This document shows positions 8,357 to 47,134 of a stretch of 64,000 nt of DNA, piece by piece. A program made the translations under genes and the position numbers. The DNA is from an uncultured Actinomycetes bacterium (GTDB lineage: Bacteria > Actinomycetota > UBA4738 > HRBIN12). Location: positions 406,663 through 470,662 of the forward strand of contig CAVPUQ010000001.1 in the NCBI GenBank assembly GCA_963708985.1, written 5' to 3'. Below the pieces are notes generated by a model. That model did no database searches, was not told the DNA's origin, and was given only the letters and a program-made list of their open reading frames with translations. The first letter of the stretch is position 1. Each line of letters begins with the position of its first letter.

Positions 8357-8387
8357 CGACGATGGTACCGGTGGCCGTGCGTCGCGG

Positions 8388-9737: not shown

Positions 9738-9776
9738 GGGCCCGAACCTAGCAGAGCGAGCTCGAAGCTGTGGGGC

Positions 9777-10745
9777 TCAGCCCTCGGCGGGCAGGAGCGA
9801 GGCATTCGGGCTCGGCGGGATGTTCTTCTTGGCGAGGAGCCCATCACCCGGATGTCGGCGGCGATCGCCTGCAGGGTTGCCTGGTCCAGGTTCACGATCG
9901 AGGTGTCGCCGGCCATCCCGGTCCCGCCCGGGAGCACGACGTTCTACGACCCGCTTCGGGTTCAGCGTCGATGCCGTGAAGGCGAGGCTCAGATCTCGTC
10001 GAGGGACAGGTCGGTCCGCATGCTCCGCAGCCCGGCGCCGACCCAGTCGAGTATGCGGCTCGGGTCGCTCGTGAACTCCTTGCGGAACTGCGCGAGCGCC
10101 GAGACGAGCAGCCGACCCTGGTTCTCCGAGCGCCCGAAGTCACCCTCGGGGAGCGCGTGGCGAGCACGGGCGAGCGCGAGCGCGTCGCGTCCCGAGAGCG
10201 TCTGCGTGCCGGCATCGATCTGTGCGTGCGCGTACCGGTCGTACACGTCGAACGGCACGTTCGACCGTCAGGCCGCCGATGTCGTTGATCATCGCCTGGA
10301 ACCCCTCGAACCATGTGAGCGCCCAGTAGTCGATCGTCACGCCCATCAGGCTCTCGACGGCGTCGACGACGAGGCTGGGGCCGCCGGCCGTCATCGTCGC
10401 GTTGATCTTGTTCGTTCCGTACCCGGGGATCGAGACCCACGAGTCCCGCGGGAAGCCGATGATCGTGGCCTTCGCCTTCGCGGGGTTGATCGAGACCAGA
10501 TGGATCGAGTCGGCTCGCTGACCCGCGATCTCCTCACCCGGGCGCGCGTCGCTGCCGAGCACGAGGATGAAGATCGGCTTCGAGCCGTCGAGCGTGGGCA
10601 CGTAGCCCGCGTGAGCTTGCTGCAGCTGGAAGAACGGCGCCGCTCCGGCCGGAGCGGTCCGGGGTGAGGTGCCGAGCACCGTGCCGGCGACCCAGGTCAC
10701 GAGCAGGATCGCGACGAGTGCGGCACGGCGCCGGGGGGCGGGCAT
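9777..10745 (-). CDS. LCP (LytR-CpsA-Psr) family protein (frameshifted)
   Basis: N-terminal TM, then FILVLGSDAR...RADSIHLV...FPRDSWV...KINA, ALALARARH...DFGRSENQ. Confidence 0.9.
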
Positions 10746-15081: not shown

Positions 15082-15087
15082 TTCCAG

Positions 15088-17349
15088 TTGTTCGGTGTCC
15101 TGGCCCAGGAGGGCGGCCCGATCGAGGCCGTCTTCGGCAACTTCGAGACCAACGCGCTGTGGGTGATCCTCGTGATCTCGCTGTGCGCGCTGGCCTTCGC
15201 CTACTACCTCGTACGTGAAGTGCTCGGCGCCCCTGAGGGCACCGACAAGATGAAGGAGATCGCCCGAGCGATCCAGGAGGGCGCGAGCGCATACCTGAAG
15301 CGTCAGTTCAGCACCCTCGGGATCTTCCTCGCGCTCCTGACGGTGCTGCTGTTCATCGTGCTCCCGACGCCGGCGAACGCCGCGCACTCGGCCTTCTCGA
15401 TCCGGTTCGGGCGCTCGCTGGCATTCATCTTGGGCGCGGTGTTCTCGGCGACGACCGGGTTCGTGGGGATGTGGCTCGCCGTCCGCGCGAACGTCCGCAC
15501 CGCGAATGCCGCTCGCGAGTCCGGCCTGCGCAAGGCGATGCGGATCGCGTTCCGCGCCGGCGGCGTGGCCGGCATGTTCACGGTCGGCCTCGGGCTCTTC
15601 GGCGCGACGGTCATCCTGCTCGTCTACAAGCAGCGATGCGACGTCGGTGCTGGTCGGCTTCGGGTTCGGTGGCGCGCTCCTCGCGATGTTCATGCGGGTC
15701 GGCGGCGGCATCTTCACGAAGGCCGCGGACGTCGGCGCGGACCTCGTCGGCAAGGTCGAGCAGGGCATCCCGGAGGACGACCCGCGCAACGCGGCCACGA
15801 TCGCGGACAACGTCGGGGACAACGTCGGTGACTGCGCCGGGATGGCGGCCGACCTGTTCGAGTCCTACGAGGTCACCCTCGTCGCCTCGTTGATCCTCGG
15901 CGCTGCGGCGTACAGCGGCTCCGAGGTCGGTGCGATCGCCGGCGTGATGTTCCCGCTGTTCGTCCGCGCGGTCGGCGTCATCACCTCGATCATCGGGATC
16001 CTCGCGGTCTCGCCACGCTCCGAGGAGGAGCACGGCATGAAGGCCATCAACCGCGGGTTCTTCCTGTCGGCGGCGGTCTCGGCGGCGGCCGTCTTCGTGA
16101 TCTCGAGCATCTACATGAAGGACGTCCGGCCGGCTGTTGCCGTCCTGTTCGGGCTGATCCTCGCGAGCGTGATCCAGGTGCTCACGCAGTACTTCACCGA
16201 CACGAAGCACAAGCCGGTGCAGGAGATCGCCGAGGCCGACGCAGACGGGCCCGGCGACGACGATCCTGTCAGGTTTCTCGGTCGGCCTGGAGTCCACCGT
16301 CTGGTCGCTCATCGTGATCGTCGGCGCGGTGGTCGGCGCGTTCCTGCTCGGCGATTCGACGGCCGAGCGCCTGTACTTCATCTCGCTCGACCGGCATGGG
16401 CATGCTCACGACCGTCGGCGTCATCGTCTCGATGGACACCTACGGACCGATCTCGGACAACGCGCAAGGCATCGCCGAGATGTCGGGCGAGTTCGAGGGC
16501 AAGCCCGCGAAGATCCTCGGGGGCCTGGACGCCATCGGGAACTCGACCAAGGCGATCACGAAGGGCATGGCGATCGCGACCGCGGTGATCGCGGCGACCT
16601 CGCTGTTCGGCTCGTTCGAGGAGGCCCTGAAGGAGGCCGGGTTCGACTTCGACGGCATCCGCGTCGACCGACCCGACGTGCTCGTCGGGCTGCTCGTCGG
16701 CGGCTCGATCGCGTTCTTGTTCTCCTCGCTCGCGATCCGCGCCGTCGGCCGTGCTGCCTCACAGGTCGTGGTGGAGGTCCGCAACCAGTTCCGCGACCAC
16801 CCCGGCATCATGACCTTCGAGGAGAAGCCGGACTACGCGAGCGTGGTCGACATCTGCACGAAGACCTCGCTGCGCGAGCTGATGACCCCCGGTCTGCTGG
16901 CGGTGCTCTCACCGATCATCGTCGGGTTCTTCCTCGAGGGCCGAGGCGCTCGGCGCGTTCCTCGCCGGCGCGATCCTCACCGGCCAGCTCCTCGCGGTCA
17001 TGCTCTCCAACTCGGGCGGCGCGTGGGACAACGCGAAGAAGTACATCGAGGAGGGCCACTACGGCGGCAAGGGCTCGGAGCGGCACAAGGCCGCCGTCAT
17101 CGGCGACACGGTCGGCGATCCGTTCAAGGACACGGCCGGTCCGGCGCTGAACCCGATGATCAAGGTGATGAACCTCGTCGCGCTGCTCCTCGCGCCGCTC
17201 GTGGTCGAGCACGCGGACGACACGGTGCTGCGGATCGTGGTCGGCCTCGTCGCGGTGGCCGTGGTCGGCGCGGCGGTCTACGTCTCGAAGACGCGGAAGT
17301 CCGAGCTGATGACGTCGCCCGACCGAAGGAGGAGGCCCTCGTCTCGTAG
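15088..17349 (+). CDS. hppA: Membrane-bound H+-translocating pyrophosphatase, K+-independent type (frameshifted)
   Basis: [72 protein letters not shown] (Lys variant), [23 protein letters not shown]. Confidence 0.95.
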
Positions 17350-19181: not shown

Positions 19182-21611
19182 TCAGCGTACTGCCTGCCCG
19201 GTGGGCACGTCAGCGGGCCGAGCGGGCGGGAGGTGCTTCGTGAAGAAGTACGGCACCACCGCGATGTCCACGTGCTCGTAGCGTCCGAGCGCCTGGAGGA
19301 TCCGTCGGCTGGTGCGGTCATGCAGGAGCCGGCCGCGGAGCTGGGCGTGGTCGCGCCGGGGCATGACGACCGTGATCTCGCGGCCACGCCCCACGAGCTC
19401 GGCGACGTACCGCTCGAGCGCCCTCGCGACGTGGCGATCCCAGCACTCGATCACGTCGAGCTGAACGGGCACGCCGAGTTCCATCCATCGCCTGATGAGC
19501 GTCTCCTGCTTGTCGTGGTCGACGGCGGCATGCACGGCCCAGACATCGTCCGCGCCGAGCGACAGCGCGTACCGGATCGCCCGGAACGTCGCCCGGTCCG
19601 CTCGGTCCACCAGGACGACGACCTCGTGCGCGAACCGTGGGGACAGACGCAAACGCTCCTTGCCGTCCCGGACCTCGGTGATCGGATGCCCCGCGCCAGG
19701 GTGGTCGCGGACAAGCGTGATCCGCGCGTTCACGTTCGGGAGCAGGACCCTCGCGAGACGGGCGCCCTCGCGCCACCGGCGCAGCCGTTCGCTGGTGCCC
19801 ATCTGGGCAGGACCGGGGAGGATCACGTTCACCTCGGCTCCCGATGGGAGCGCCGCGACGTAGCCGGCGATCGCGCTGGACGGGTCACCCTCGCCCCGGA
19901 CGACGTAGAGCGGCACGCCGCTCACGAGATCCAGCCAGGCACGCTCCAGCTCGGCGGTCGTGGCAGGATCGTCGCTCGAGGTGCACGGCGCGGACCTCGG
20001 CCGCCTTGATGGTCTTCGCGTACTGGAGGGCATGCGTCGTCTTGCGGTCGAGCGCGTCGACGAGCACGATCGCGACGGGTGGCCCCTGTCGACTGGTGTC
20101 GAAGGGCTCGAGCTCCTCGTCGAGCTCCTCGTGCTCCCGCTCGTATCGGCGGTTCAGCCGGACGAGGAGCCACACCATGATCGGCACGAACACCATCACG
20201 GCCCACGCGCCGTGCGAGAACTTCGTGAACGCCACGACGACGGCCACCACGGCGGTCGTCAGCGCACCGACGGCGTTGATCGCGAGGCCGTGCCGCCACC
20301 CCGGCTCTCGGACTCGGAGGTGGCGCTTCGCCATGCCCGCCTGCGAGAGCGTGAACGACGTGAAGACGCCGATCGCGTAGAGCGGGATCAGGCGGTGCAC
20401 GTCGGCACGGAACGCCACGACCAGGCCGGTTGCGGCGATCGCGAGCCCGACGATCCCGTTCGAGAAGACCAGTCGATGGCCCCTCGTCGTGAACTGGCGA
20501 GGCATGAACGCGTCGCCGGCGGCGAAGTTCGCGAGGCGCGGGAAGTCCGCGAACGAGGTGTTCGCGGCAAGGATGAGGATCAGGGTGGTCGCGACCTGCA
20601 GGCAGAGGAACAAGGCGAACCCGACCGAGCCACGCGCCGAACACCACGCGACCCGACCTGCGGAGATCACGGTCTTCGTCCTCCGTCGGCACGACCTGGA
20701 GCCGATACGCCAGGAACGATAGGCCGAGGAACATCACGCCGAGCAGGCTCCCCATCCACATCAGCGTCGTTCGAGCGTTCTTCCATTCGGGCGGCTTGGA
20801 ACGCGGGGATGCCGTTCGAGATCGCCTCGACGCCGGTCACCGCAGCGCCCACCCGAGGCGAACGCGTGGAGGACGAGGAAGATCCCGATCGCACCGGTCG
20901 TTCCCGAGCGCTTCGTCCGGGAGCGGGAGCGGGTGCAGGGTCCCGTGGCGGCCGCGGATCGACGCCCGTGACCGAGCAGGACGAACATGGTCACGATGAA
21001 GAAGTACGTAGGGATCGCGAACATGCGGCCCGATTCCCGCACGCCGCGCAGGTTGCCCCAGGCGATGAACCAGATGCACAGCACCGAGATCTCGACCCGG
21101 TACGGGAAGAGCCCCGGAGCGGCGGAGGTGACGGCTGCCACGCCGGCCGAGATCGAGACGCTGACGGTCAGCACGTAGTCGGTGAGCAGGGCGACGCCGG
21201 CGACCTGGGCCGGGACGAGTCCGAAGTTGTCCTTGGTGACGATGTACGCGCCGCCCGCGCTGGGGTACGCCTTGATCGTCTGACGGTAGGAGAACAGCAA
21301 GATCGCGAGGACCGTGAGGATCGCCGAACGTCACGGGCATCAAGAGCGAGAATGCCGCGACGCCCGACGATGGGCACCCCGACCTTCAGGATCTCCTCGG
21401 TGGCGTAGGCGACGGAGGAGAGGTTGTCGGACGCGAAGACCGCGAGCGCCGTGCGGCTTGCCGAGCCGTTCGTGCGCGAGGTGCGAGGTCGGCAGGACCG
21501 GCCCGAGGATCGGCCGCTTAGGGTAGGCGCCGGGGCCGATGCCCTCGCGGCGAGCCTCCCTTCGTCGTAGTCCGGAACTCGGAGTCTTGTCGAGGTGGCC
21601 ATCACGGGCAT
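19182..21611 (-). CDS. KimA-like APC/KUP-family K+/H+ symporter #1 with duplicated cytoplasmic domain (frameshifted)
   Basis: VFASDNLSSVAYATEE, SYRQTIKAYPSAGGAYIV, DYVLTVSVS, GNLRGVRESG, TGVEAISNG, ANTSFADFPRL, two C-terminal alpha/beta repeats. Confidence 0.88.
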
Positions 21612-33454: not shown

Positions 33455-35464
33455 TTGTCCACGATCGCCGACGAGGTCGCAGCGCTCCGAGGCACGAAGC
33501 CGGCGACCTTCAAGGACCTCCTCACCCACCCCGCGTTCTCGAAGCTCCTCGCGGCCCAGACCATCTCGTCGCTCGGCGACTGGGTGGGGTTCGTCGCGGT
33601 CGCCGCGATGGTGAACCGGCTGGGTGGCAACGTCGGTGCGTACGCCGTGGCTGGTGTGATGGTCGCCCGGATGCTGCCGGCGATCCTCTTCGGTCCGATC
33701 GCCGGCGCCCTCGTCGACCGGATGGACCGCAAGCGGATGATGATGACCGCGGACCTGTTCCGGGGCGCGCTCTACGCCACGATGCCGTTCCTCGGCAAGC
33801 TCTGGCTCATCTTCCTGGTGTCGTTCGTGATCGAGTGCTTCTCGCTCCTTTGGAGCCCCTCGCGCGACGCGAGCCTTCCGAACCTGGTCCCGCGCCGTCA
33901 GCTCGCGAACGCGAACTCGCTCGGCCTGGTGACCACCTACGGAACCCTTCCACTGGGCGGCCTGATCTTCGCGTTCCTCGCCGGCGGGTCAGGCCTGATC
34001 CCGACGCTCAGCCACAACCCGGAGGCGGTACCCCTCCTGCTCGACGGCAGCACGTTCCTGTTCTCTGCGTTCATGCTCAGCCGCATCCAGTTCCCGCCGC
34101 CGACCGCACACAAGGTCGAGCGGCTCGACATGTCGCGCGTCGGCCGAGACATCGTCGAGGGCGTCCGATTCCTGCGCGAAGACTCCCTCGCATCGGCGAT
34201 GACGCTCGGCATCGTGGTCGCGTTCACGTCTGTCGGGGCGGTGCTGGCGATCGGTCCGATCTTCACCACCGACACGCTCGGCGCCGACAGCACCGGGTGG
34301 GGGATCCTCGTCACGTCGTTCGGCGTCGGGATGGGCATCGGCATGGGGCTGTCGAACAAGGCGGTGGACTTCGTCGATCGCGAGCACGTGTTCGTCTGGT
34401 CGCTCATCGCCGCGGCGGCGACCCTGTTCCTGCTCGCGGCGATGCCGAACATCCAGCTCGCCGCGATCGTCACCGTGGTGCTCGGCGTGTTCTGCGGATC
34501 GGCGTGGGTGAGCGGGTACGTGCTGCTGCAGGAGAACGTCGAGGACGAGTTCCGGGGTCGGACCTTCGGAGCGCTCACGGTGCTCTCGCGCCTCGGCCTG
34601 TTCCTGTCGCTCGCCGCCTTCCCTGTCCTGGCGGGTATCGTGAGCGCGCGTGAGGTCTTCATCGGGGATCAGCGGATCGACCTGTCCGGCACGCGCGTCG
34701 CGCTGTGGGTCGCCGGCGCGATGGTCGTCGGCGCCACCCTGTTCACCCGCCGTGGTCTCTCGCGGTACCGGATCGGCCGTCCCCAACCCCTCGCGCTCGT
34801 GCCGAAGCTGAAGCGCGCGCCGTCGAACGGGGTCTTCGTCGCCTTCGAGGGCGTCGAGGGCTCCGGCAAGGGCACCCAGATCCGCCTGGCCAAGGAGTAC
34901 CTCGAGTCGCAGGGGATCGGCGTGCTCGTGACGCGGGAACCGGGGGGCACGGTGCTCGGCGAGAAGCTGCGCGAGATGCTGCTCGACCACGAGACGGGTG
35001 TCGTCGAGGCTCGAACCGAGGCGCTCCTGTTCGCGGCGAGCCGGTCCCAGCACGTGACCTCGGTGATCCGGCCTGCGCTGGCCGAGGGCAAGGTCGTGAT
35101 CTGCGACCGCTACATCGACTCGAGCCTCGCGTACCAGGGGTGGGCGCGGGGCGTGGGCGAACAGGACGTGCTCACGCTGAACGTGTGGGCCACGCAGGGC
35201 CTGTTCCCCGACCTCACGGTCCTGCTGCACCTCGAGCCCGAGGCCGGCCTGCTGCGCTCCCTCGAGGAGCCGGACCGGATCGAGATGGAGGGCGGCGAGT
35301 TCCACGCGAAGGTCGCCGACGCCTACCTGAAGATCGCCGAGGAGCATCCCGAGCGTTTCATCGTGATCGACGCCGACGACACGCCCGAGCGCGTCCACGA
35401 GCAGGTCGTCGAGGCCCTGAAGCGCGTGCTCAAGGAGCGGGAGGACAACGGCGACGACGGCTGA
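33455..35464 (+). CDS. tmk: MFS transporter-thymidylate kinase fusion
   Basis: Single intact 669-aa ORF: MFS TMs, then FVAFEGVEGSGKGTQ, REPGG, DRYIDSSLAYQG. Confidence 0.93.
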   Translation: MSTIADEVAALRGTKPATFKDLLTHPAFSKLLAAQTISSLGDWVGFVAVAAMVNRLGGNVGAYAVAGVMVARMLPAILFGPIAGALVDRMDRKRMMMTADLFRGALYATMPFLGKLWLIFLVSFVIECFSLLWSPSRDASLPNLVPRRQLANANSLGLVTTYGTLPLGGLIFAFLAGGSGLIPTLSHNPEAVPLLLDGSTFLFSAFMLSRIQFPPPTAHKVERLDMSRVGRDIVEGVRFLREDSLASAMTLGIVVAFTSVGAVLAIGPIFTTDTLGADSTGWGILVTSFGVGMGIGMGLSNKAVDFVDREHVFVWSLIAAAATLFLLAAMPNIQLAAIVTVVLGVFCGSAWVSGYVLLQENVEDEFRGRTFGALTVLSRLGLFLSLAAFPVLAGIVSAREVFIGDQRIDLSGTRVALWVAGAMVVGATLFTRRGLSRYRIGRPQPLALVPKLKRAPSNGVFVAFEGVEGSGKGTQIRLAKEYLESQGIGVLVTREPGGTVLGEKLREMLLDHETGVVEARTEALLFAASRSQHVTSVIRPALAEGKVVICDRYIDSSLAYQGWARGVGEQDVLTLNVWATQGLFPDLTVLLHLEPEAGLLRSLEEPDRIEMEGGEFHAKVADAYLKIAEEHPERFIVIDADDTPERVHEQVVEALKRVLKEREDNGDDG

Positions 35465-36560: not shown

Positions 36561-36671
36561 CCCGCCCGACGCAGCGCGTCGCGGGTCCCCCGAACCACCC
36601 ATCCGGAAGTGGTGCTGGCATCACTGCCGTCGGGGGTCGCGCGTGTCAGGCTGGACGTGGAGGTTCAGGAC

Positions 36672-37046
36672 ATGCCCGTGCGTGTGCTCATCGTGGACGA
36701 CCAGGAACCGTTCCGGATGGCGGCTCGGATGGTCGTTCAGGCGACCGACGGCTTCGAGGTCGTCGGCGAGGCCGAGAGCGGCGAGGACTCGGTCGTCATG
36801 GCTCGCGACCTCGCGCCCGACCTCGTCCTCATGGACGTGAACCTGCCGGGGATCAACGGGCTCGACGCCACCCGGCAGATCCTCGCCGAGGGCAGCGGCT
36901 CGGTCGTCGTGCTCCTGCTCTCAACCTACGAGGAGGAGGAGTACGCGCCTCGCGCCGCCGAGTGCGGTGCCGCGGCGTACGTCCCGAAGGCGGTGTTCGG
37001 CCCGGATCGTCTCGAGCAGGCCTGGGCGGCCGCGATCTCGAGCTGA
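36672..37046 (+). CDS. Single-domain response regulator (receiver only)
   Basis: [35 protein letters not shown]; no output domain. GTG 36657 is an alternative start. Confidence 0.9.
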
Positions 37047-37050
37047 CCGG

Positions 37051-39174
37051 TCAGCGCACCGGGACGCGTCCGAGAACGGCTGTGCCCTGCCCGGGCTCGG
37101 AGCGCACCTCGAGCGATCCGCCCAGCGCGTCGAGCCGGTCCGCCATCCCCTGCAGGCCAGTGCCGCCCGTCGTGGTCCGGCGGTCGAACCCGACCCCGTC
37201 GTCCGACACGATGAACGTGAGTCCAGAGCCCTCGTCACGCAGGTCGATGTCGACGCGTGAGGCCTCGGCGTACTTCGTGACGTTCTGCAGCGCCTCGAGC
37301 ACGCAGAAGTAGACGGCAGCCTCGACCTCCTGGTGGTAGCGACCCACCCCGTCCGGGTGGACCTGGACGGGGGTCGTGACCTTGCGGGCCTGCGCCTGGA
37401 GCGCGGCCGTGAGGCCCTCGTCGGCGAGCAACGGAGGGTAGATGCCTCGGGCCAGGTCGCGCAGGTCCTCGAGGGTCTCGCCCGCCTGCGTCTGAAGCTG
37501 GGCGAGCACCTCGCGCGCCTTCGCCGGGTCGCGCTCGACCACTTGGTCCGCGAGGCGGAGCTTCACCGCGAGAGCGACCAGCTGCTGCTGCGCCCCGTCG
37601 TGGATGTTGCGCTCGAGCTTGCGGGCGCGCTCGTCCTGGGCGGCCACGATCCGGCGTCGGGACTCCTGGAGCTCCTCGATCAGGCGGACGTTGCGGAGCA
37701 TCAACCCCGCCTGGCCCGCGAGATCGGAGACGAGCTTCTCGCCGTCCTTCGAGAGCGGTTCTGCGGCGGGCATCGCCACGGTGAGCACGCCCAGGAGCTC
37801 GCCGCGGTCGCGCACCGGGAAGGTCCGGAGCCCGTCGATCTCGGGGACCTCGTCCGGGGCGGTCTCGATCGCGGCCACCGCCGGGGGGTGGCTCGGAGCG
37901 GAGGCCACCGGCCGGATCTCGCGGCCGACGTGGAGCCACACCCGGGCCACGTCGGCGCCGGTCGAGGCCCGTACGATCTCCGCCATCCTGGGGAGCACGT
38001 CCTCGGTCGAGTACGCGTCGCCTAGACGCTCGGAGAACTGGGCCATCGCCTCGTAGCGGGTCGCTCGCCGACCGTACACGAGTCGTCTCGCGAGCCGTTT
38101 CACCGGGCGGAACGTGAAGACGAGCATGAGGGCGAACACCGCCGCCCCGGTCACGATCCGAGCCGCGATGATCTCACCCCGCGCGGAGCCGCCCGTCCCT
38201 TCGGCTCCGATGACCGCGAGGGGCGAGAGCATCAGGCTCAGCAGGCCGAGCAGGATCACGAAGAAGATCACCAGCACGGCGTAGACGACGGTCTTCTTCA
38301 TCACCACGCCGACGTCGTAGAGGCCATACGTGAGGACGGCCGCCGCGGTGGCGACGGGGATCCCCACGAAGACCCCGAACGCGTCGACGAGGGCGGCCAG
38401 CACGACAGGGATCCACGACCAATCCGCGGCACCGGACCCGAGCGCAGCCACGATGGCGATCGCCGTGGCGACCGCCATCGCCCCGATCATCACGACGAGC
38501 AGTCGGAGGGATTGTCGTCCCTCATCGGTCGCCGACCGGAAGCGCAGCACGAGAGCTCCGAGGCCGGCGAACGCGGCTCCACCCACGAGGGCCAGTCCGA
38601 GTGCGAACGCGCTGCCGATCCCCGGGAGGCGGGCGGCCCATCCCGGCGGATCGATCCCCGTGGTGCCCGAGAACTGGTCGATGGTCCCGACCGCGCCGAG
38701 GAGCATGAGCGCGGCGCCCAGGCCCAGGACGGCGACCGCGACGCGCCACCGCCGCGATCGGAGATGACCGTCGGGGAAGAGCAGGAGGAAGGGCGGGAGC
38801 GATACGGGCAGGACGAGGAGCGAGCTGAGGGTGCCGATCCAGGCGGCCGCGGCGGCACCCGGCAGCGATCCGAGGCCTGGACCGCCGCCGAGCCCCGCTT
38901 GCGCGTACGCCATCCCGGACAGCCACAGGACGAGCGAGAGCCCCACCACGCAGAAGAGCCATCCGATCGGGTTGCGGGGGAGCCGGCGGGCGACGAGGCC
39001 ACCGAGGATCGTGTAGATCGCCGCGGGCACCCCGAGCAGGACCACGGCGGCGTCAGACGGCCGGTCGATCAGGACGATGGTCAGGGAGCCCACCCAGAGC
39101 AGGCTCATCGTGATCCACAGGCCCCCGATGAGCCGACCCACTCGCCCGATCCCCCACCGAGCCATGCGGGGCAT
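37051..39174 (-). CDS. Multi-TM sensor histidine kinase A (TM region-GAF-HisKA_3-HATPase)
   Basis: LLLFPDGHLRSRRWR, ERNIHDGAQQQLVAL, LRDLARGIYPPLL, EALQNVTKYA, DDGVGF..GTGLQGMADRL. Intact frame; start 39174 or 39165. Confidence 0.92.
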   Translation of the reverse strand: MPRMARWGIGRVGRLIGGLWITMSLLWVGSLTIVLIDRPSDAAVVLLGVPAAIYTILGGLVARRLPRNPIGWLFCVVGLSLVLWLSGMAYAQAGLGGGPGLGSLPGAAAAAWIGTLSSLLVLPVSLPPFLLLFPDGHLRSRRWRVAVAVLGLGAALMLLGAVGTIDQFSGTTGIDPPGWAARLPGIGSAFALGLALVGGAAFAGLGALVLRFRSATDEGRQSLRLLVVMIGAMAVATAIAIVAALGSGAADWSWIPVVLAALVDAFGVFVGIPVATAAAVLTYGLYDVGVVMKKTVVYAVLVIFFVILLGLLSLMLSPLAVIGAEGTGGSARGEIIAARIVTGAAVFALMLVFTFRPVKRLARRLVYGRRATRYEAMAQFSERLGDAYSTEDVLPRMAEIVRASTGADVARVWLHVGREIRPVASAPSHPPAVAAIETAPDEVPEIDGLRTFPVRDRGELLGVLTVAMPAAEPLSKDGEKLVSDLAGQAGLMLRNVRLIEELQESRRRIVAAQDERARKLERNIHDGAQQQLVALAVKLRLADQVVERDPAKAREVLAQLQTQAGETLEDLRDLARGIYPPLLADEGLTAALQAQARKVTTPVQVHPDGVGRYHQEVEAAVYFCVLEALQNVTKYAEASRVDIDLRDEGSGLTFIVSDDGVGFDRRTTTGGTGLQGMADRLDALGGSLEVRSEPGQGTAVLGRVPVR

Positions 39175-39343
39175 GGTGACACCATCGGGACCGTCGTCCA
39201 AGGGAGTCGACCTGCGGGTCTGCGGGCGGGAACCCCACCGTGACGGGTGTGCAGGCACCCCTCGACGCTTGTGGTGGCGGCCGGGTCGCTCCCCGGGCCC
39301 TCGCCTCCTACGGTGGGTCCGAGAAGAACGAGGGAGGCTCGAG

Positions 39344-39751
39344 ATGAACAAGATCCTCGTCGGAACCGACACCTCGGGATCGGCGGACCTGGCCGTGCGC
39401 GCTGCAGTCGGGCTGGCCGAGGCGACCGACGCCGAGCTCCTGGTCCTGCACGTCCGATCGCCGAACGGCGGACACGACGCGGTCGACCCGCGCAAGGCCC
39501 CCGACCCCGGCGCGTACCTGTCGGCGATGTCCGCGCGGTTCCCGGCGGTGCGACTGCGGGCTTGGAGCGAGCCGGGCGACGCCGCCGAGCGTCTGGTCGA
39601 GGTCGCGGAGACCGAGCGCGTGGACACGATCGTGGTCGGGAACAGGGGCGTGCACGGCCCGAGGTGGCGCGTCCGCGACAGCGTGCCGACGATGGTCGTG
39701 CGCCACGCCCCGTGCTCGGTGCTGATCGTGGATACGCGGGCGGCGCAGTGA
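39344..39751 (+). CDS. Universal stress protein (stand-alone USP)
   Basis: RBS GGGAGG; KILVGTDTSGSA, IVVGNRGVHG...SVPTMVVRHAPCSVLIV. Confidence 0.9.
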   Translation: MNKILVGTDTSGSADLAVRAAVGLAEATDAELLVLHVRSPNGGHDAVDPRKAPDPGAYLSAMSARFPAVRLRAWSEPGDAAERLVEVAETERVDTIVVGNRGVHGPRWRVRDSVPTMVVRHAPCSVLIVDTRAAQ

Positions 39752-39762
39752 CGCTCGGAAGG

Positions 39763-40429
39763 TCAGGCGCCGCGCTCGCGGAGGAACGCGAGCACCGCCA
39801 TCACCCGACGGTGGACCTCGGGCTCCTCGGAGAGCGCGAGCTTGTGGAACAGCGAGTTGATGTGCTTCTCGACCGCTCGCTCCGTGAGGAACAGCGACCT
39901 CGCGATGGCGGCGTTGTTCTTGCCCTGCGCCATCTGCTCGAGCACCTCGCGCTCGCGATCGGTGAGCTGCGCGAGCGGCGAGTGCGCCATCCGGTCCTTC
40001 GCCGAGACGAGCGCCTCGACGACCTTGGGATCGAGGACCGAGCCGCCGCCCGCGACCTCGCGGAGCGCCCGCACGAGTTCGCCCGACGTCGGCGACCCGC
40101 TCCTTCAGCAGGTACCCGAGCCCCGCCGCCCCGTCCTTGAGCAGCTCGTACGCGTACTCCTCCTCGGCGAACTGCGACAGGACGACGACGCCGATCTCCG
40201 GGTGCTCGCCCCGGACCTTCCTCGCCGCGTCGATGCCCTCGGTCGTGTTGGTCGGCGGCATGCGGATGTCGGTGAGCACGGCCTCGGGGCGGAGCTCGTC
40301 CACGGCCAAGAGCAGCTCCTCGAGGTTCGTCGCGGTGCCGACCAGATCGACCTCGTCCGAGTTGGTCAACAGGGCGGCCGTCCCCTCGCGAACGAGGTAG
40401 TTGTCCTCGGCGAACACGACACGGATCAC
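39763..40429 (-). CDS. NarL/LuxR-family response regulator (frameshift near 40085)
   Basis: MIRVVFAEDNYLVREG, VLTDIRMPP, GYLLKERV, LTDREREVLEQMAQGKNNAAIA...VEKHINSLFHKL. Confidence 0.93.
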
Positions 40430-40446
40430 GGCGGCATGCTACACAC

Positions 40447-40459
40447 ACCACCGGTGGGG
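40447..40459. promoter_or_regulatory. Palindromic motif ACCACCGGTGGGG, copy 1
   Basis: Perfect 10-bp palindrome CCACCGGTGG in the 38-bp divergent intergenic region; identical 13-mer at 46307-46319. Confidence 0.5.
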
Positions 40460-40467
40460 GACGCGGG

Positions 40468-41765
40468 TTGACGATCAGGGTCGTGCTGGGAGAGGACAAC
40501 GTCCTCGTGCGCGAGGGCGTCCGTGCCCTCCTGGACTCCTACGACGACATGCAGGTCGTCGGCGTGGCCGCCGACGCGCCGTCCCTGCTCTCGACCGCCG
40601 CCGAGCACGCCCCCGACGTCGTCGTGACCGACATCAAGATGCCCCCGAACTTCCAGCTCGAGGGCATCGACTGCGCCCACGCCATCCGCGCCTCGCAGCC
40701 CGGCACCGGAGTCGTGGTCCTGTCGGCCCACGACGACGAGGCGTACGCGATCGCGCTCCTCGGCCAGGGGCAGAGCGGGCTCGCGTACCTGCTGAAGGAC
40801 CGCATCGCGCAGGGCGACGAGCTCGTGCGCGCGATCCGCGAGGTCGCCGCCGGGGGCAGCGCGGTGGACCCGATGATCGCCGAGCGCCTCTCCGGCCGCC
40901 GCGAGACCGCCGAGGCGGACCGGGAGATCCTGGACATGATGGCGCAGGGCCTCGGCTACGAGCAGATGGCCGAGCGACTCGGCACGACGCAGGAGTCCGT
41001 CGACCGCCGGGTCACCGAGCTGTTCCGCCGGATGGCGATCCAGGCCGAGGGCGGCTCGGCCGCCGCGGTGGACGAGCTGAAGCGTCTGCACGCCGCGGTC
41101 GTGCAGAAGGAAACGACCGCGTCCTCGCTCCGTTCGTACGTTCCGTCGCAGGTCGCCGACCGGCTCGCGACGGGCGAGGTGGGACAGCAGGAGCTGGAGG
41201 TCACCGTGTCTGTTCAGCGACATCCGCGGCTTCTCGACGATCGCCGAGCGGCTGTCCGCCCGCCAGATCTCCGAGATCGTCGGTCGGCACCTGCTCGGCG
41301 ATGGCCGAGGTCGTGGCGGAGCACGGCGGAACGATCGACAAGTTCCAGGGCGACGCGGTGATGGCGGTCTTCGGCGCGCCGGACCCGCTGCCCGACCACG
41401 CCGAGCGCGCCCTGCGGTGCGCGATCGCGATGCAGGCTCGCCAGGCCGCGCTGAACGCCGAGGGCTGGGGGACCGACGCCATCGACGGCCTGCAGGTCGG
41501 GATCGGGGTCAACACCGGCCAGGTGATCGCGGGCGCCGTCGGTGGGGGCGGCAGGCTCGAGTACACGGTCGTCGGCGATGCCGTGAACGTCGCCTCGAGG
41601 CTGCAGTCGGAGGCCGACGGCGGCGAGATCGTGACGACCGCCTCGACGATGGCCGCCGCTCCGAGCGTCAGAGCCGAATCAGTCGGTCCGCGCGTCGTGA
41701 AGGGTCGCGAGGAGCCGGTCGAGGTGTTCCGCGTGCGCGTCGAGACCGGGGAGCGCTCGACGTGA
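40468..41765 (+). CDS. REC-LuxR-like HTH-class III adenylate cyclase fusion (frameshifts near 41210 and 41295)
   Basis: REC (VVLGEDNVLVREG, VVTDIKMPP), HTH-like DREILDMMAQGLGYEQMAERLGTT, cyclase LFSDIRGFS, IDKFQGDAVM, GIGVNTG, YTVVGDAVNVASRL. Confidence 0.9.
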
Positions 41766-43906
41766 GTGCCGCGTCGGCAGCCCGCATGCGTGCGCGGCCC
41801 GTCCGCTGGCCCTGGCTCGCGGTCATCTGGTTCATCGTCGTCGCCACCGCGGGCTTCGCGCTCGTCGTCGAGAACGGCGAGTCCGTCCTCGAGCAGGTCC
41901 CGTTCACGGTCGCGTTCGCCCTGTTCGGCGTCGTCGGAGCGCTCATCGTCAGCCGGGCGAGGAACCGGATCGGCGCCCTCCTGCTCTGGGGTTCGGCGTC
42001 GACCGCGCTCTCCTTCGTAGCGGGCGAGGCCACGACCGCGCTCGTGCGGCGTGGCACGACGACGGGACCGGTGGCCGTCGGCGCGGCAGCGTTCGCGAGC
42101 CTGGGATGGGTGATCGGGATCCTGCCCGTGTTCCTCCTGCTGCCCTTGCTCTTCCCGGACGGCCGACTCCCCTCGAGGCGTTGGCGGCCGCTCGCCTGGC
42201 TCTGCGTCGCTTTCCTCGTCCTCCTGGGGGTCGGTAGCCTGCTCACCCAACCGATCCTGACCGGATCCGTCGAGAGCGCCGGGGTCCCGAACCCGCTCTT
42301 CATCCCCTCGCTCGGCGAGATCGGGATCTCCGAAGCCTTCTTGAACGTCGGGCTCCTCGTGTTTCTCGTCGGCTCCGTGGGCTCCCTGATCGTTCGGTTC
42401 CGACGGGCTCGGGGGGTGGAGCGCCAGCAGATCAAGTGGGTCGCGGCCACCTCCGTCCTCTTGCTCGTGTCCTTCGTCCTCTCCGCTCTCGCGAGCGCCG
42501 TTGGGTTGGGTGGCTTCGTCGACGCCTTCGTCGTGGGGCCGGCGTTCGTGCTCCTCCCCGTTTCGATCGGGATCGGGGTGTTGCAGTATCGCCTCTACGA
42601 CCTCGACGTCGTCGTGAAGAAGGCGCTCATCGCAGGCACGCTCGTCGTGTCCGGGATCGCGGTGTACGGCGGCGTCGTGTGGGTCGCGGGATCGATCGCC
42701 TCGGATCGTGCCAGCTCGGTATCCCTCTTCGTGATCGCGCTCATCCTCGGGATGGCGTTCCGCCCGGTGGTCCGGTTCGCTCGGCGGGTCGCCGACCGGC
42801 TCGTGTACGGGCGCCGAGCTACCCCGTATGAGGTCTTGACCGAGTTCTCCGGCCGCGTCGGCGAGGCGTACGCGACGGAGGACGTCCTCGGGCGGATGGC
42901 GCGGATCCTGGGCGAGGGCGTCGGCGCGGAGGAGGCCCGCGTCTGGCTGCTGGTCGCCGGCGAGCTGCGGCCGGAGGGCGCCTGGCCCGCCGGCGCCGAG
43001 GCGGGTCACCCGCGCCCGGTGCGCGGCGATGCGCTCCCCGGGCTGGCCGGTGAGATGGCCGTCGAGGTGCGCGATCGCGGCGAGCTCCTCGGGGCGCTCT
43101 CGGTTCGGATGTCCGCCAACGACCCGATGACCCCGCCCAAGGAGCGGCTCGTCCGGGACCTCGCGTCGCAGGCGGGGCTGGTTCTGCGCAACGTCCGGCT
43201 CGTCGAGGAGCTCCGCGCCTCGCAGCGTCGCCTCGTGGCCGCGCAGGACGAGGAGCGTCGGCGGATCGAACGCAACATCCACGACGGCGCACAGCAGCAG
43301 CTCGTCGCGCTCGCCGTCAAGCTCCGACTCGCGCAGGGGCTCGCGTCGAAGGACCCGAGCAGGACCGAGGCCATGCTGCTGCGACCTGCAGGAGGAGACG
43401 CAGTCGGCCCTGGAGGACCTGCGCGACCTCGCTCGAGGGATCTACCCACCGCTGCTCGCCGACAAGGGCCTCGCGGCCGCGCTCGAGGCGCAGGCCCGCA
43501 AGACCCCGATCCCGGTGCGAGGTCGACGCCCGACGGCATCGGCCGCTACCCGCAGGAGGCGGAGGCGGCGGCCTACTTCTGTGTGCTCGAGGCGCTCCAG
43601 AACGTCTCGAAGTACGCGGACGCCACCAGGGCCATGGTCCGCCTCGGCCACGACGAGGGGCACCTGACCTTCGAGGTCCAGGATGACGGTGCCGGGTTCG
43701 ACGCCGCGTCGACCGGCTACGGCACGGGACTGCGAGGGATGGCGGACCGGCTCGGAGCGCTCGATGGCGAGATCGCCGTGGAGAGCGCGCCCGGACGCGG
43801 CACCACCGTGCAAGGGCGGATCCCGGTTGAGGTCGAAGAGCGGCAGGCGTCTGGGTCGGGCTCGGTGCGGGTCACGGAGGAGCGAGGGTCGGAGGCGGAG
43901 GGCTGA
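41762..43906 (+). CDS. Multi-TM sensor histidine kinase B, paralog of kinase A (compensating indels 43380-43525)
   Basis: LLFPDGRLPSRRWR, YRLYDLDVVVKK, ERNIHDGAQQQLVAL, EALQNVSKYA, DDGAGF..GTGLRGMADRL. GTGA overlap with the cyclase gene. Confidence 0.92.
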   Translation: MSAASAARMRARPVRWPWLAVIWFIVVATAGFALVVENGESVLEQVPFTVAFALFGVVGALIVSRARNRIGALLLWGSASTALSFVAGEATTALVRRGTTTGPVAVGAAAFASLGWVIGILPVFLLLPLLFPDGRLPSRRWRPLAWLCVAFLVLLGVGSLLTQPILTGSVESAGVPNPLFIPSLGEIGISEAFLNVGLLVFLVGSVGSLIVRFRRARGVERQQIKWVAATSVLLLVSFVLSALASAVGLGGFVDAFVVGPAFVLLPVSIGIGVLQYRLYDLDVVVKKALIAGTLVVSGIAVYGGVVWVAGSIASDRASSVSLFVIALILGMAFRPVVRFARRVADRLVYGRRATPYEVLTEFSGRVGEAYATEDVLGRMARILGEGVGAEEARVWLLVAGELRPEGAWPAGAEAGHPRPVRGDALPGLAGEMAVEVRDRGELLGALSVRMSANDPMTPPKERLVRDLASQAGLVLRNVRLVEELRASQRRLVAAQDEERRRIERNIHDGAQQQLVALAVKLRLAQGLASKDPSRTEAMLLRPAGGDAVGPGGPARPRSRDLPTAARRQGPRGRARGAGPQDPDPGARSTPDGIGRYPQEAEAAAYFCVLEALQNVSKYADATRAMVRLGHDEGHLTFEVQDDGAGFDAASTGYGTGLRGMADRLGALDGEIAVESAPGRGTTVQGRIPVEVEERQASGSGSVRVTEERGSEAEG

Positions 43907-44115
43907 TGGCCGGGCGCGCGCCGGCGAGGAAGAAGCGCTCCGTGTTCCGGCGCGTCGAGCGCTGGATGGTCGGCCTCGCCATGGGTGTGATGGCGTTCGT
44001 GCTCGAGCGCGTCGTGATGCGCTCGGTCCGCAAGAGGGGGAAGCGAGACCCCGCCCCCAAGCCCACGACGCTCTCGTCGAAAGGCGGGGACGTCGACCTT
44101 CCCGAGCAGCGCTAG
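43906..44115 (+). CDS. Small basic hypothetical protein (69 aa) with one hydrophobic segment
   Basis: ATG overlaps kinase B stop; RRVERWMVGLAMGVMAFVLERVV; fills the gap exactly to the convergent gene. Confidence 0.6.
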   Translation: MAGRAPARKKRSVFRRVERWMVGLAMGVMAFVLERVVMRSVRKRGKRDPAPKPTTLSSKGGDVDLPEQR

Positions 44116-46236
44116 GGCGACGGCTTCCGGTCGCGGAACAGGTCCGCGAGCAGCCCCATCGTGAACACCAGCCCGACGGCTCCGAGCGTGATCGGGATCC
44201 AGTCCGCCACCCTGGCCGAGGTCGCCGTGATCGCCGTGCCGAGCAGCGAGGCGGCCGCCACGACACCGAGGGCGAGCCGTCGGCCCGCCCGGCGCACCGT
44301 CTGTTCCAGGGAGGCCGCGCGGAAGTTGACCTCGAGCTTCTGGCCGGGGCGAGCACCGATCAGCCGCTCGACGGCCTCGACGACGCGCAGGAAGCGGACC
44401 TTCAGTCGTCTGCGACTGGTAGAAGAGCGTCTTCGGGTCGAACTTCGCGCCCATCTCCGTGATCAAGGCACGCATGAGGAACCTGCCGGCCACGTCGAAC
44501 GGGTCGAGCGTGGGGTCCAGCTGCGCGGCGGCGAGCTGCATCTGTGCCAGCGCCTTCGCCGTCAGCGTGAGCGAGGCCGGCAGCGGGACGTTGTGGCGCA
44601 GCGAGATCTCCGTCATCTCCTGCAGGACCGGTCCGAGCTGGATGTCCTTGCAGCGAAGCGCCGTGGTACTTGGCCATCAGCTCGCCGATCTCGCCCGAGA
44701 ACGCCTGCGTGTCCAGGTCGCTGCGGTCGATCGCGCCGGCCAGCATGAGCGTGACGTCGGTGAGGAACCCGACGTCCTGCTGCCAGAACGCCATGAGCAG
44801 GAGCAGCATCATGTGCTCGCGCATCTCGGGGCCGACCTCCCCGATCATGCCGAGGTCTAGGAGGAAGATCCGCTCGGTCGACGGCTGCCACATCAGGTTC
44901 CCGGGGTGCGGGTCGGCGTGGAAGAAGCCGTCGACGATGATCTGCTTGTAGAACGACTCGAGGAGCTGCCGCGCCGACTCCTTGCGCGCCGTCCCCTCGG
45001 GGGCATCGCTGATCGGGCCACCCTGCACGTCCTCCATCACGAGCAGCCGTGACGTCGAGAAGTCACCGAACACCGCCGGCACCTCGAGCCGCGAGAACTG
45101 CTCGATGACCTCGGCCATCCGTCGCATGTTGCTCGGCCTCCTGGCGGAAGTCGAGCTCGCGGTGGAGCGAGTCCGAAAGGTGCTCGAACACGGCCCCCAT
45201 GTCGATGACCTGCTTCAGGGCTGGGCGGTCGCTGACCTTCTCGGCGAAGACCTCGAGCAGCGCCAGGTCCTGCTCGATCTGCTCGCGGGCGTCGGGGCGC
45301 TGCACCTTCACGACGACCGGCTCGCCGTTCGCGAGGATCGCACGATGGACCTCGGCGATCGTGCCGGCCGCGAGCGGGCTGTGGCTCGATGTGGTCGAAC
45401 ACGTCCTCCCACGGCACGCCGAGCTCCTGCTCCATGACCTTCACCACCTGCTCCTCGGTGAGGGGAGGGACGTGATCCTGGAGCGTGGCGAGCTCCTCGA
45501 TGAACTCCGGCGGAAGCAGGTCGGGTCGCGTCGAGAGGATCTGCCCGAGCTTCGCGAACGTCGGCCCGAGCTCCTCGAGCGCCGAGCGAAGGCGCTTGGC
45601 CTGGCGCCGGCGCCCGATCGCGCCCTCCTCGTCCGGACGGCCGAACAGCTCCTTCAGCCCGTGCTTCGCGAAGACAGCCGCGATCTTCGAGCCGCGCGCC
45701 ATCAGGTGCGGCTCGGCCTCCTTCTCCAGCACCGAGCTTCGGATCACCGTCGCCGAGCGTGGATCGCGTGTCACGACGTGGCCCTCGCTCCCCGCGGTGT
45801 TCACGATGATCACCGTGCATCGCGCGTTGTGGCTGATCCGGTTCGGCACGTTGCCGAGCAGGAACTCCTTGCGCCCGGCCATCCCGGCGTTGCCGACCAC
45901 GAGCACGTCGATGTCGTGGTCCTCGGTCGCGTGCACGATCGCCATGGCCGGGTCGTCGTCGATCACGACGTGGGCCCGTCCCCGTTCGCCCGCCAGACGG
46001 ACCGACTCGGCCTGGAGCTCGTCGGCGGCGGTTCGAGCCCGGGTGGCCTCGGCCGCGCCGTACTCGGTCGTCGCCGGGTTCGTGGGCATGACGACCTGGA
46101 CCAGGTGCAGCTCGGCGCCGTAGCGCTCGGCGAACGCGCTCGCCCATCCGACCGCGCGCGTGGCGGTCTCGGAGCGGTCGGTCGCGACCATGACCCGCCC
46201 CACCCCGTTCCTGCCGACGTCCCTCACGTCCGCCAT
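44112..46236 (-). CDS. USP-ABC1/UbiB(AarF) atypical kinase fusion with two C-terminal TMs (frameshifted)
   Basis: USP (VMVATDRSETA...VVGNAGMAGRKEFLLGNVPNRISHNARCTVIIV) is in the same frame as GPTFAKLGQILSTRPDLLP; then AAGTIAEVHRA, VVVKVQRP, ELDFRQEA, GFFHADPHPGN, LLDLGM. Confidence 0.9.
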
Positions 46237-46306
46237 GGCCTCGCAGTCTGCTGGAGTTGTGGCTTCTCGGCAACGGGGCGCCCACCATGGCCGGTCGGGT
46301 GGTTGG

Positions 46307-46319
46307 ACCACCGGTGGGG
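46307..46319. promoter_or_regulatory. Palindromic motif ACCACCGGTGGGG, copy 2
   Basis: About 70 bp upstream of the USP-ABC1 ATG and about 20 bp upstream of the tRNA -10 (TACACT 46337-46342). Confidence 0.5.
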
Positions 46320-46352
46320 CGGGACACGCGGTTCGCTACACTCGCTGACGCC

Positions 46353-46428
46353 GCCGGGGTAGCTCAGTTGGCAGAGCAGCGGTTTCGTAAACCGCAGGTC
46401 AGGGGTTCGAGTCCCCTCCCCGGCTCCA
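46353..46428 (+). tRNA. tRNA-Thr(CGT)
   Basis: Acceptor GCCGGGG/CCCCGGC, D-arm AGCTCAGTTGGCAGAGC, anticodon arm GCGGT-TTCGTAA-ACCGC, T-loop GGTTCGAGT, encoded CCA; 76 nt. Confidence 0.97.
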
Positions 46429-46476
46429 GATGCCGGACGAACGGAACGGGGAGCGACCTTGCTAGAATCCGCGCCG

Positions 46477-47134
46477 ATGCGTCTCCGGTCGGCTCCCGTG
46501 AAGTTGCTCGTCGCCCTCGCCGCGGGCATCTCCGCGCTCGTGGCGAGCGCCTCGGCCGCGGTGGCCCAGGTGGTCGTGAGCCCGGATGCACAAGCCGGAG
46601 CGCAACGACGGCGGCTGGATCTACTGGATCGCGATCGCCCTCGTCGTGCTCGGCGTGCTGCTCGCTCTCTCGATCGTCATCCGCTACATGCGCTACGCGC
46701 CGCGCTTCCAGCGGGAGGAAGGCACCCCCCGGACGGTGCGCGCGACCAGGATCCAACCGGGCCGCGAGGCTCCCCGCCGCCCCGTCAACATCACGGGAGC
46801 CCCGGTCGTCGTGCCGGCCCCCGCGGTCGCGATCGCCTCCCCCGCGGTCGCCGCCGCGGCGCCCGCAGCAACCGTCGCGACGGCAGCACCTCCGGTGGCC
46901 CCGGCGCCTGCTCCCGCACCATCCACCGCGCCGGCGCCATCCGCGGCAGCGGCGGCGAGCCCCGTCGTCGCGGAGCCCGCCCCCGCCGCCGAACGCAAGG
47001 AGGTCCCGATCGACCAGGAGACGTTCGACCGCGTGCTCGCCGAACTGCTCGAGCAGGGGACCACCCGCCGCGTCGCCGAGGGTCAGGCTCGGCGCGCCGC
47101 GATGATCGCCGCGCGGAAGAAGGCCGGGGCCTGA
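46477..47134 (+). CDS. Hypothetical membrane protein with Ala/Pro-rich linker (frameshift near 46588)
   Basis: Signal-like N-terminus, TM WIYWIAIALVVLGVLLALSIVI, AP-rich tract, charged helical C-terminus IDQETFDRVLAELLEQGTTRRVAEGQARRAA. -10 TAGAAT 8 nt before ATG. Confidence 0.7.

Follow-up and report, generated by a model that had tools for sequence, protein, structure and literature searches.

The window analysed here, a stretch of 64,000 nucleotides from the genome of an uncultured Actinomycetes bacterium (GenBank assembly GCA_963708985.1, contig CAVPUQ010000001.1, positions 406,663–470,662), carries a block of signalling genes that appears, from its sequence, to encode a multi-kinase, three-receiver hub. 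Its distinctive member is a NarL-type response regulator fused to an active-looking adenylyl cyclase (hereafter RAC). We consider it moderately probable that the block is a conserved chromosomal two-component hub in which HisKA_3 kinases would signal to three receivers and RAC would make cyclic AMP (cAMP), and that the adjoining gene, encoding a universal stress protein (USP) domain fused to a UbiB/ABC1 domain (hereafter UA), is not its dedicated effector. RAC represents an uncharacterised type of response regulator, nearly universal across one class-level group of uncultured soil Actinomycetota. It joins phosphorelay, a DNA-binding fold and cAMP synthesis, and a single phosphorylation could thus yield both a transcriptional and a second-messenger output.

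Because the window has a G+C content of 70%, genes were called by codon-position G+C, and domains were checked with Pfam. The initial annotation had read the block as a stand-alone receiver, a histidine kinase (HK-A), a free USP, a NarL-type response regulator, RAC, a second histidine kinase (HK-B), a small protein and UA. Every domain of this layout, and their order, was borne out by Pfam. All proteins of the block scored below the NCBIfam cut-offs for equivalog naming.

RAC (40468–41765, plus strand; matched by Pfam on three frames) comprises a receiver domain (REC), a diverged LuxR/GerE-type helix-turn-helix (HTH), a helical linker and a class III cyclase domain. In relatives it is a single intact open reading frame (ORF) of 423–445 aa with 66–86% identity. 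It was found in 226 of the 294 species genomes of this uncultured Actinomycetota class; the RAC-bearing group consists of metagenome-assembled genomes (MAGs) of uncultured soil Actinomycetota, and metagenomes contain thousands of homologues annotated only generically as class 3 adenylate cyclase/NarL-FixJ response regulator. Residues 1–190 of RAC, HTH included, share 46% identity with the full-length NarL-type regulator of the block, and RAC therefore appears to have arisen by duplication of a NarL regulator and fusion to a cyclase. No description of the REC–HTH–cyclase order was found in the literature searched.

The residues expected of a working protein are in place. In alignments of 17 and of 32 orthologues, the phospho-acceptor Asp of the receiver (TDIKMPP) is invariant, as are the metal Asp residues D251 (LFSDIRGF) and D295 (GDAVMA), the transition-state residues N373 and R377 (GDAVNVAxR) and the specificity residue T366. 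The adenine-specifying K291 (DKFQGD) is retained in at least 90% of sequences, two orthologues having Gln or Asp instead. From these residues we infer that the substrate would be ATP and the product cAMP. The cyclase domain matched Pfam Guanylate_cyc (E = 6e-18), and its AlphaFold2 model matched CyaB (3R5G), Cya2 (2W01) and CyaC (1WC1) in Foldseek with TM-scores of 0.81–0.89 and 34–37% identity. The full-length model consists of the receiver, a four-helix HTH at residues 135–192 (pLDDT 86–89), a low-confidence linker and the cyclase. The HTH scored 16.3 bits against Pfam GerE, below the cut-off of 23.5, and its recognition helix is diverged (AVDRRV versus AVEKHI). As predicted, the domain has the four-helix fold of the LuxR/GerE type, and its DNA binding is putative.

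The two kinases of the block are paralogous. HK-A (37051–39174, minus strand) and HK-B (41762–43906, plus strand) both have a polytopic membrane N-terminus of about 8–10 transmembrane (TM) helices predicted by hydropathy and a weak GAF-like region, followed by HisKA_3 (E = 2.5e-12 and 3.2e-8, respectively) and HATPase_c (E = 4.1e-10 and 5.7e-10, respectively); the GAF match of HK-A (E = 8e-4) lies below the Pfam cut-off. The H-box reads ERNIHDGAQQ in both, and the entry of the Protein Data Bank (PDB) nearest to the kinase catalytic core is DesK. Besides RAC, the block encodes a stand-alone receiver (REC-only; 36672–37046, plus strand; Response_reg, E = 7.7e-23) and the NarL-type regulator (39763–40429, minus strand), whose Response_reg (E = 4.2e-15) and GerE HTH (E = 3.5e-15) domains were matched by Pfam one on each of two frames. 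The top PDB matches of the NarL-type regulator were DevR, VraR and NarL, the nearest being DevR 3C3W (E = 4e-26). REC-only is 79–89% identical in relatives and adjoins holB in most loci where holB is visible. Its gene is kept in genome G001, which lacks the rest of the module.

Gene overlaps suggest how the parts are expressed together. The start of HK-B overlaps the stop of RAC (GTGA), and the start of the small ORF (43906–44115, plus strand) overlaps the stop of HK-B (TGATG); RAC, HK-B and the small membrane protein are, as read from these junctions, probably translationally coupled. The core of free USP and NarL-type regulator in convergent orientation, followed by RAC, is constant, while the flanking kinase copies vary from 0 to 8 on each side. 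The variable kinase number around RAC offers a natural example of many-to-one signal integration. The initial annotation had proposed that kinase input switches on a cyclase, and this half of its proposal stands: RAC is a real, conserved single protein, uninterrupted and widespread, whose receiver has its phospho-acceptor and whose class III cyclase is intact, and it is coupled to a HisKA_3 kinase. The proposed path from kinase through receiver to cAMP is therefore well founded by inference.

The kinases also differ strikingly in number between genera. Across the related loci (L037–L116, e.g. L061, L069, L090 and L116), paralogous polytopic HisKA_3 genes range from 0 to about 8 per side, the pattern of a kinase family that is expanding fast and converges on one set of receivers; frameshifted assemblies inflate some of these counts.

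Built on the domain anatomy, catalytic residues, operon coupling, conservation and separability of parts seen in these loci, we propose the following mechanism. One to many paralogous polytopic HisKA_3 kinases, two in the window, would sense a membrane or envelope cue and phosphorylate three presumptive partners, namely the NarL-type regulator, RAC and REC-only. The NarL-type regulator would provide the transcriptional output through a putative regulon. In RAC, the NarL-like REC–HTH half would control the fused cyclase, with phosphorylation-driven dimerisation perhaps assembling the dimeric active site, and the cAMP formed would feed a large cellular cAMP network. REC-only may take up phosphate as a sink or act as a connector. 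The free USP might be a target or an accessory of the module, as USP genes accompany DevR/OsdR-type systems. UA is the single UbiB-family ATPase/kinase of the lineage, placed in the adjoining backbone, and may be transcriptionally co-regulated.

UA (44112–46236, minus strand; matched by Pfam on three frames) comprises a USP domain, a disordered linker, a UbiB/ABC1 domain of the atypical kinase-like type and two C-terminal TM helices. Its orthologues are intact proteins of about 700 aa, the ABC1 match being spread over three frames in the window copy. The motifs KLGQ, AAGTIAEVHRA, VVKVQRP, HADPHPGN and LDxG show no variation in alignments of 16 and of 30 orthologues, and the AlphaFold2 model matched COQ8A (E = 9e-17), Rv3197 and USPs in Foldseek. 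Equivalence to E. coli UbiB was not found with either of two models, as UA scored 336.2 bits against TIGR01982 (cut-off 487.55) and 269.5 bits against PRK04750 (cut-off 667). These genomes have no ABC1/UbiB gene other than UA. The small conserved protein encoded next to it in the window, of 69 aa with a single TM helix, matched no Pfam or NCBIfam family; it adjoins UA in relatives, among them G031, from which the module is missing.

Co-occurrence and synteny of RAC with UA had been named in the initial annotation as a check on its model, and the outcome is mixed: linkage of the two genes holds across family f1 and in parts of f2, f3, f4 and f7, yet each gene is also found alone or unlinked from the other. 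The 80 closest loci share a constant gene order, which runs holB, REC-only, a variable number of kinases, free USP, NarL-type regulator (reversed), RAC, again a variable number of kinases, the small gene, UA (reversed), tRNA-Thr and a Zincin_2 peptidase gene. RAC and UA are convergent and 0.2–8.2 kb apart in each of those loci with enough flank. Presence and absence were read from a sample of 61 genomes and are confounded by physical linkage and by MAG incompleteness. The whole two-component module is missing from G031 and G036, where the small gene with UA (G031) or UA alone (G036) still lies between holB and Zincin_2; the window genome's congener G001 retains holB, REC-only, UA and Zincin_2. 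UA keeps its USP domain in all genomes of the sample that have UA but no RAC (G031, G036, G001, G016, G041, G049 and G056). RAC occurs without UA in G044 and G052; UA went undetected in G015 too, but there the RAC contig ends inside the downstream kinase. The module lies at holB and UA elsewhere in G054, G040 and G058, and RAC and UA are also unlinked in G051. Outside the class, RAC and UA lie on separate contigs in families f18 and f79, G345 and G404 carry UA but not RAC, and the USP domain is missing from some UA orthologues in f18. Because UA is the sole UbiB, stays when the module is missing and is unlinked in several families, the linkage of RAC and UA reads as the insertion of a module next to a gene of the backbone. 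UA is part of the backbone segment from holB to tRNA-Thr and probably not a dedicated cAMP effector.

One UA orthologue is discontinuous. In G040 (L128, G040:C1 8785–10858), its USP and ABC1 parts match as two pieces 70 nt apart, which may mean that the gene is naturally divided in two or that the assembly has a frameshift there.

The neighbourhood could also be explained by gene regulation with no second messenger, UA and the free USP belonging to a regulon that the NarL-type regulator or the RAC HTH controls through a shared palindromic operator. We hold this explanation to be unlikely. An 18-bp palindrome, AGTGGTGCTGGCATCACT (36608–36625, no strand), lies upstream of REC-only. Its core, GTGCYRGCAY, was found upstream of REC-only in 31 of 35 loci, upstream of the free USP in 31 of 67 and in the UA/tRNA-Thr spacer in 23 of 61, and these three sites account for 85 of the 108 occurrences in 1.31 Mb of related loci (L037–L116). 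The palindrome is a candidate operator common to three promoters and hints at transcriptional co-regulation. Of the findings made here, it gives the strongest evidence that the module is functionally tied to the UA/tRNA-Thr promoter region, and it points to transcription and not to cAMP. Further in favour of a regulon, USPs are classic targets of NarL regulators of the DevR/OsdR type (PMC5069765), and in the genus of the window genome a genome-unique 13-mer, with a different palindrome, is common to the spacers of the NarL-type regulator and RAC and of UA and tRNA-Thr. Against it, a palindrome-like site is kept at tRNA-Thr in the module-less G031, and the palindrome at UA overlies the −35/spacer region of the tRNA promoter, so that it may serve the tRNA instead of UA. 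The palindrome is absent from unlinked UA loci, and 20–45 copies of its 10-mer occur elsewhere per genome, so it is not exclusive to the cluster and its role as operator is putative.

The 13-mer had been noted in the initial annotation as an identical motif in two promoter regions, which proved correct: ACCACCGGTGGGG occurs at 40447–40459 and 46307–46319 (both plus strand), and these are the only two copies in the 2.96-Mb genome; the chance expectation in the window, allowing up to one mismatch, is 0.17. It contains a perfect palindrome, CCACCGGTGG. The first copy lies in the 38-bp divergent spacer between the NarL-type regulator and RAC, overlaps the Shine-Dalgarno region of RAC and is kept only in the congener G007 (L055), not in the other 70-odd relatives. 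The second falls between the start of UA and the tRNA-Thr gene, with 17 nt separating it from the downstream tRNA −10 element (TACACT, 46337–46342); relatives have GGTGCCAGCACCC there, an element that is the core of the 18-bp palindrome. The 13-mer was rejected as a conserved operator, G007 sharing it only at the regulator/RAC site and relatives carrying a Shine-Dalgarno-like purine run there and the other palindrome at the tRNA. A third genomic copy of CCACCGGTGG (C4:311480) precedes a lipoprotein-like ORF with no evident relation and was set aside. The window genome (G000) gave no support for reading the 18-bp palindrome as an element of promoters or tRNAs in general, having few intergenic copies of it and none at other tRNAs.

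Returning to the hub that we favour, several observations weigh against it. No family in Pfam or NCBIfam matched the N-terminal membrane domains of the kinases, to which sensing would fall. In family f1, and in the rearranged loci of f4 and f7 (G039, G055 and G048), UA lies within about 8 kb of RAC, which is compatible with a closer functional tie between the two than we favour. As the palindrome-like site at tRNA-Thr persists in G031 without the module, the palindrome may be a mere promoter element. Finally, the region upstream of the free USP has no conserved DevR-type box. The window USP has a 9/10 match to the Dev/Osd box (GGGMC-N4-GKCCC) at −157, and a match of at least 9/10 was found in 12 of 66 orthologous upstream regions, at varying positions; the analogy with DosR is for this reason only architectural.

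The initial annotation went on to propose that the cAMP made by RAC upon kinase input is read by the USP domain of UA, which gates the membrane UbiB kinase/ATPase, while the free USP acts as a buffer. We regard this model as distinctly unlikely. Part of the evidence does favour it. RAC and UA are close and convergent in the 80 closest loci, as described above, and their proximity outlasts rearrangement in G039 and G055 (UA, NarL-type regulator and RAC) and in G048. Strong purifying selection acts on the UA USP domain, which has an invariant nucleotide-loop motif, GNAGMxGRxEFLLGN. In the free USP, the change of the third motif Gly to Asp or Glu could disfavour a triphosphate and suit a smaller nucleotide. 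The USP fold is able to bind cAMP (PMC11107214), and the cAMP-binding USP structure 5AHW is among the structural matches.

The USP domains themselves speak for no particular ligand. The free single-domain USP (39344–39751, plus strand; Pfam Usp, E = 2.4e-21), convergent with the NarL-type regulator in almost every f1 locus, has the motif G-x2-G-x9-[D/E]-S (G-N-R-G) and not G-x2-G-x9-G-[S/T] in 26 of 28 aligned sequences. The USP domain of UA (Pfam Usp, E = 4.6e-26) has G-x2-G-x9-G-N (G-N-A-G), invariant in 16 and in 30 orthologues. Equivalents of Gly10 and Gly113 are present in the free USP; at the Gly10 position, the UA domain has Ala in the window copy and Gly in the consensus. Both USPs matched 1TQ8 and 5AHW with E values of 2e-6 to 4e-6, equal to or worse than those for TeaD, TTHA0895 and the Nitrosomonas europaea USP, and in Foldseek, cAMP-, ATP- and AMP-binding USPs ranked together as matches of the UA domain. 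Specific relatedness to Rv1636/MSMEG_3811 was thus not found for either USP by sequence, nor for the UA domain by predicted fold. Both appear to be conserved variants of the nucleotide loop, whose ligand cannot be read from sequence.

The genomic evidence argues against the gating model more directly. UA is the sole UbiB and a backbone gene, and its USP domain is kept in the seven RAC-lacking genomes; RAC occurs without UA in G044 and G052 (and in G015, with the early contig end noted above), the two are unlinked in G054, G040, G058, G051 and the sister families f18 and f79, and the USP domain is missing from some f18 orthologues. With at least 11 class III cyclases and no fewer than 14 canonical domains binding cyclic nucleoside monophosphates, the genome offers the product of RAC many conventional readers. 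The cAMP-binding USPs of the Rv1636-like kind are reported to be restricted to three genera of Mycobacteriales (PMC11107214). The reading of cAMP by the USPs and the gating of ABC1 hence found no support beyond the neighbourhood, itself explained by the backbone position; they are unsupported, not refuted. Comparative genomics neither requires nor favours a path from cAMP through a USP to UbiB, and we give such a path little chance. An extended version, in which multi-kinase input to RAC raises local cAMP that is bound by the free USP and the UA domain, switching the cell's only UbiB-family ATPase and coupling envelope or redox sensing to quinone or lipid homeostasis, is about equally improbable. 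If this were true, a bacterial UbiB would have a defined signalling input for the first time, and the first cAMP–USP effector outside Mycobacteriales would be known. A USP-fused sole UbiB beside the hub is a testable lead on how the UbiB family is regulated, though a cAMP link is not supported by the present evidence.

Nine single-base frame switches, located with a seven-state frame model, break five genes of the block. Alignment with the orthologues of the congeners G008 and G007 placed one extra base at 40085 in the NarL-type regulator, two at 41208 and 41293 in RAC, and four at 44409, 44651, 45129 and 45376 in UA. The switches in HK-B, near 43381 and 43518, were placed by the frame model alone because HK-B aligns poorly to its orthologue. 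The same model gave about 1,900 candidate switches genome-wide, about 770 of them long-flank and on the same strand, of which 630 are +1. In relatives, the orthologues are uninterrupted ORFs. The completeness estimate is only 73.7% for this 10-contig assembly, and conserved genes are likewise fragmented in other long-contig MAGs of the group. Because shifts of this type occur throughout the genome, are mostly +1 and affect genes whose orthologues are intact, we read those of the block as assembly errors and treat its genes as intact. A decaying remnant with five genes inactivated as pseudogenes, to which the clustering of nine frameshifts within about 6.5 kb (40.0–46.3 kb) might point, was on the same grounds rejected as very improbable, the codon-position GC signal being intact in each shifted segment and in-frame stops or other lesions being absent. 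Pseudogene or split-gene calls in this assembly need frameshift correction or a read-level check first. Along the genome (G000), the switches are patchy, at 0–25 per 10 kb, and further examples in the window lie at 4481–5117, 6253–10260, 15082–16939 and 19974–20852.

Other features of the regulatory DNA concern transcript ends and starts. Three convergent gene pairs abut or overlap at their stops (37044–37053, 39749–39765 and 44112–44115). The stops of REC-only and HK-A meet in TGACCGGTCA, those of the free USP and the NarL-type regulator are 11 nt apart, and those of the small ORF and UA share the palindrome CTAG. Stop-to-stop pairs of this kind leave no room for terminators, implying overlapping antisense 3′ ends. 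A conserved TAnnnT box lies 6 nt before the start of the NarL-type regulator, which suggests that its transcript may be leaderless; the Shine-Dalgarno run of RAC is kept in the same spacer. More generally, −10-like hexamers lie 6–8 nt before the starts of the NarL-type regulator and UA (40430–40467 and 46236–46260; TAGCAT-GCCGCC-GTG). Relatives have TACCAT-CCGCGC-ATG and GATGAT-GCGCGC-ATG. These hexamers suggest leaderless mRNAs that share a GCGCGC-ATG context.

The divergent spacer between HK-A and the free USP (elements at 39245–39288) contains a degenerate copy of the palindrome, GGGTGTGCAGGCACCCC, and GTGGTGGCGGCCGGGTCG, both conserved in relatives. Over about 200 nt upstream of the USP (39245–39343 and orthologous spacers), blocks are conserved across genera, comprising CCAAGGGGG, GAACCCC, the palindrome, GTGGTGGCGGCCGGGTCG, a TAnnnT box some 35 nt ahead of the ATG and AAGGAGGC. 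This region could hold two promoters with operators or an unrecognised leader element; an Rfam search of the conserved USP 5′ region gave no match.

By Pfam, the block is flanked on one side by holB and a fusion of a major facilitator superfamily (MFS) transporter with thymidylate kinase, and on the other by the Zincin_2 peptidase. The fusion, a 669-aa ORF at 33455–35464 with MFS_1/MFS_3 matches and a C-terminal thymidylate kinase, is kept upstream of holB in relatives at 60–66% identity. A tRNA-Thr gene (CGT anticodon; 46353–46428, plus strand; ARAGORN; Rfam tRNA, 71 bits) flanks UA and serves as a backbone marker. In the Zincin_2 ORF (46459–47126), an N-terminal part of about 220 aa is rich in Pro and Arg and ambiguous in frame; a switch was called at 46586, and the assigned start is provisional.

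Compared with known systems, the hub most resembles DevR(DosR)/DevS/DosT of Mycobacterium tuberculosis and OsdR/OsdK of Streptomyces coelicolor. As in those systems, a NarL-family regulator, for which DevR is the nearest solved structure, is accompanied by more than one HisKA_3 kinase, the kinases have a GAF-like region, and a USP gene lies immediately next to the regulator. USP genes are both targets and neighbours of DevR and OsdR, as in Rv3134c-devR-devS and in the cluster of USP genes around osdRK (PMC5069765). Unlike those systems, the kinases here are polytopic membrane proteins and not soluble haem-GAF sensors, no conserved Dev/Osd box lies upstream of the USP, a paralogous regulator bears a cyclase, and a REC-only protein belongs to the set.

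Among receiver-regulated class III cyclases, such as cyanobacterial CyaC and Dictyostelium ACR (PMC3009899), RAC likewise has its receiver upstream of the cyclase domain. Its catalytic residues are intact as in CyaC-type cyclases, and its predicted fold matches Spirulina platensis CyaC and Pseudomonas aeruginosa CyaB. RAC differs in being a plain response regulator instead of a hybrid kinase, with a complete LuxR/GerE-type HTH between receiver and cyclase. The mycobacterial Rv0386 family of cyclase–ATPase–LuxR proteins has an N-terminal cyclase, an NB-ARC/ATPase module and a C-terminal HTH, with no two-component input. RAC is similar in combining a class III cyclase with a LuxR-type HTH in one Actinomycetota polypeptide, whereas its domain order is reversed and a receiver takes the place of the NB-ARC/ATPase module.

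UA shares with the UbiB/ABC1/COQ8 family (E. coli UbiB, human COQ8A/ADCK3, and M. tuberculosis Rv0647c and Rv3197) the invariant KxGQ, Ala-rich loop, catalytic Lys, HxDxHPGN and DxG, and with bacterial UbiB the two C-terminal TM helices. It differs from UbiB/COQ8 in its N-terminal USP domain and in scoring below the NCBIfam UbiB equivalog cut-off. The host phylum uses menaquinone, not ubiquinone. A USP–ABC1 fusion was recorded for N. europaea in 2005 (PMC1262709). The USPs share with Rv1636/MSMEG_3811 a single USP fold, the Gly equivalents of G10 and G113 in the free USP and the presence of 5AHW among the structural matches of the UA domain. They differ from it in a similarity of only E~1e-6, in the Asp/Glu of the free USP for the third motif Gly and in the G-N of the UA domain for G-S/T. 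Measured against these systems, nothing in the block is categorically new; its novelty lies in variations on known types, namely the REC–HTH–cyclase order of RAC and the USP-fused sole UbiB beside it.

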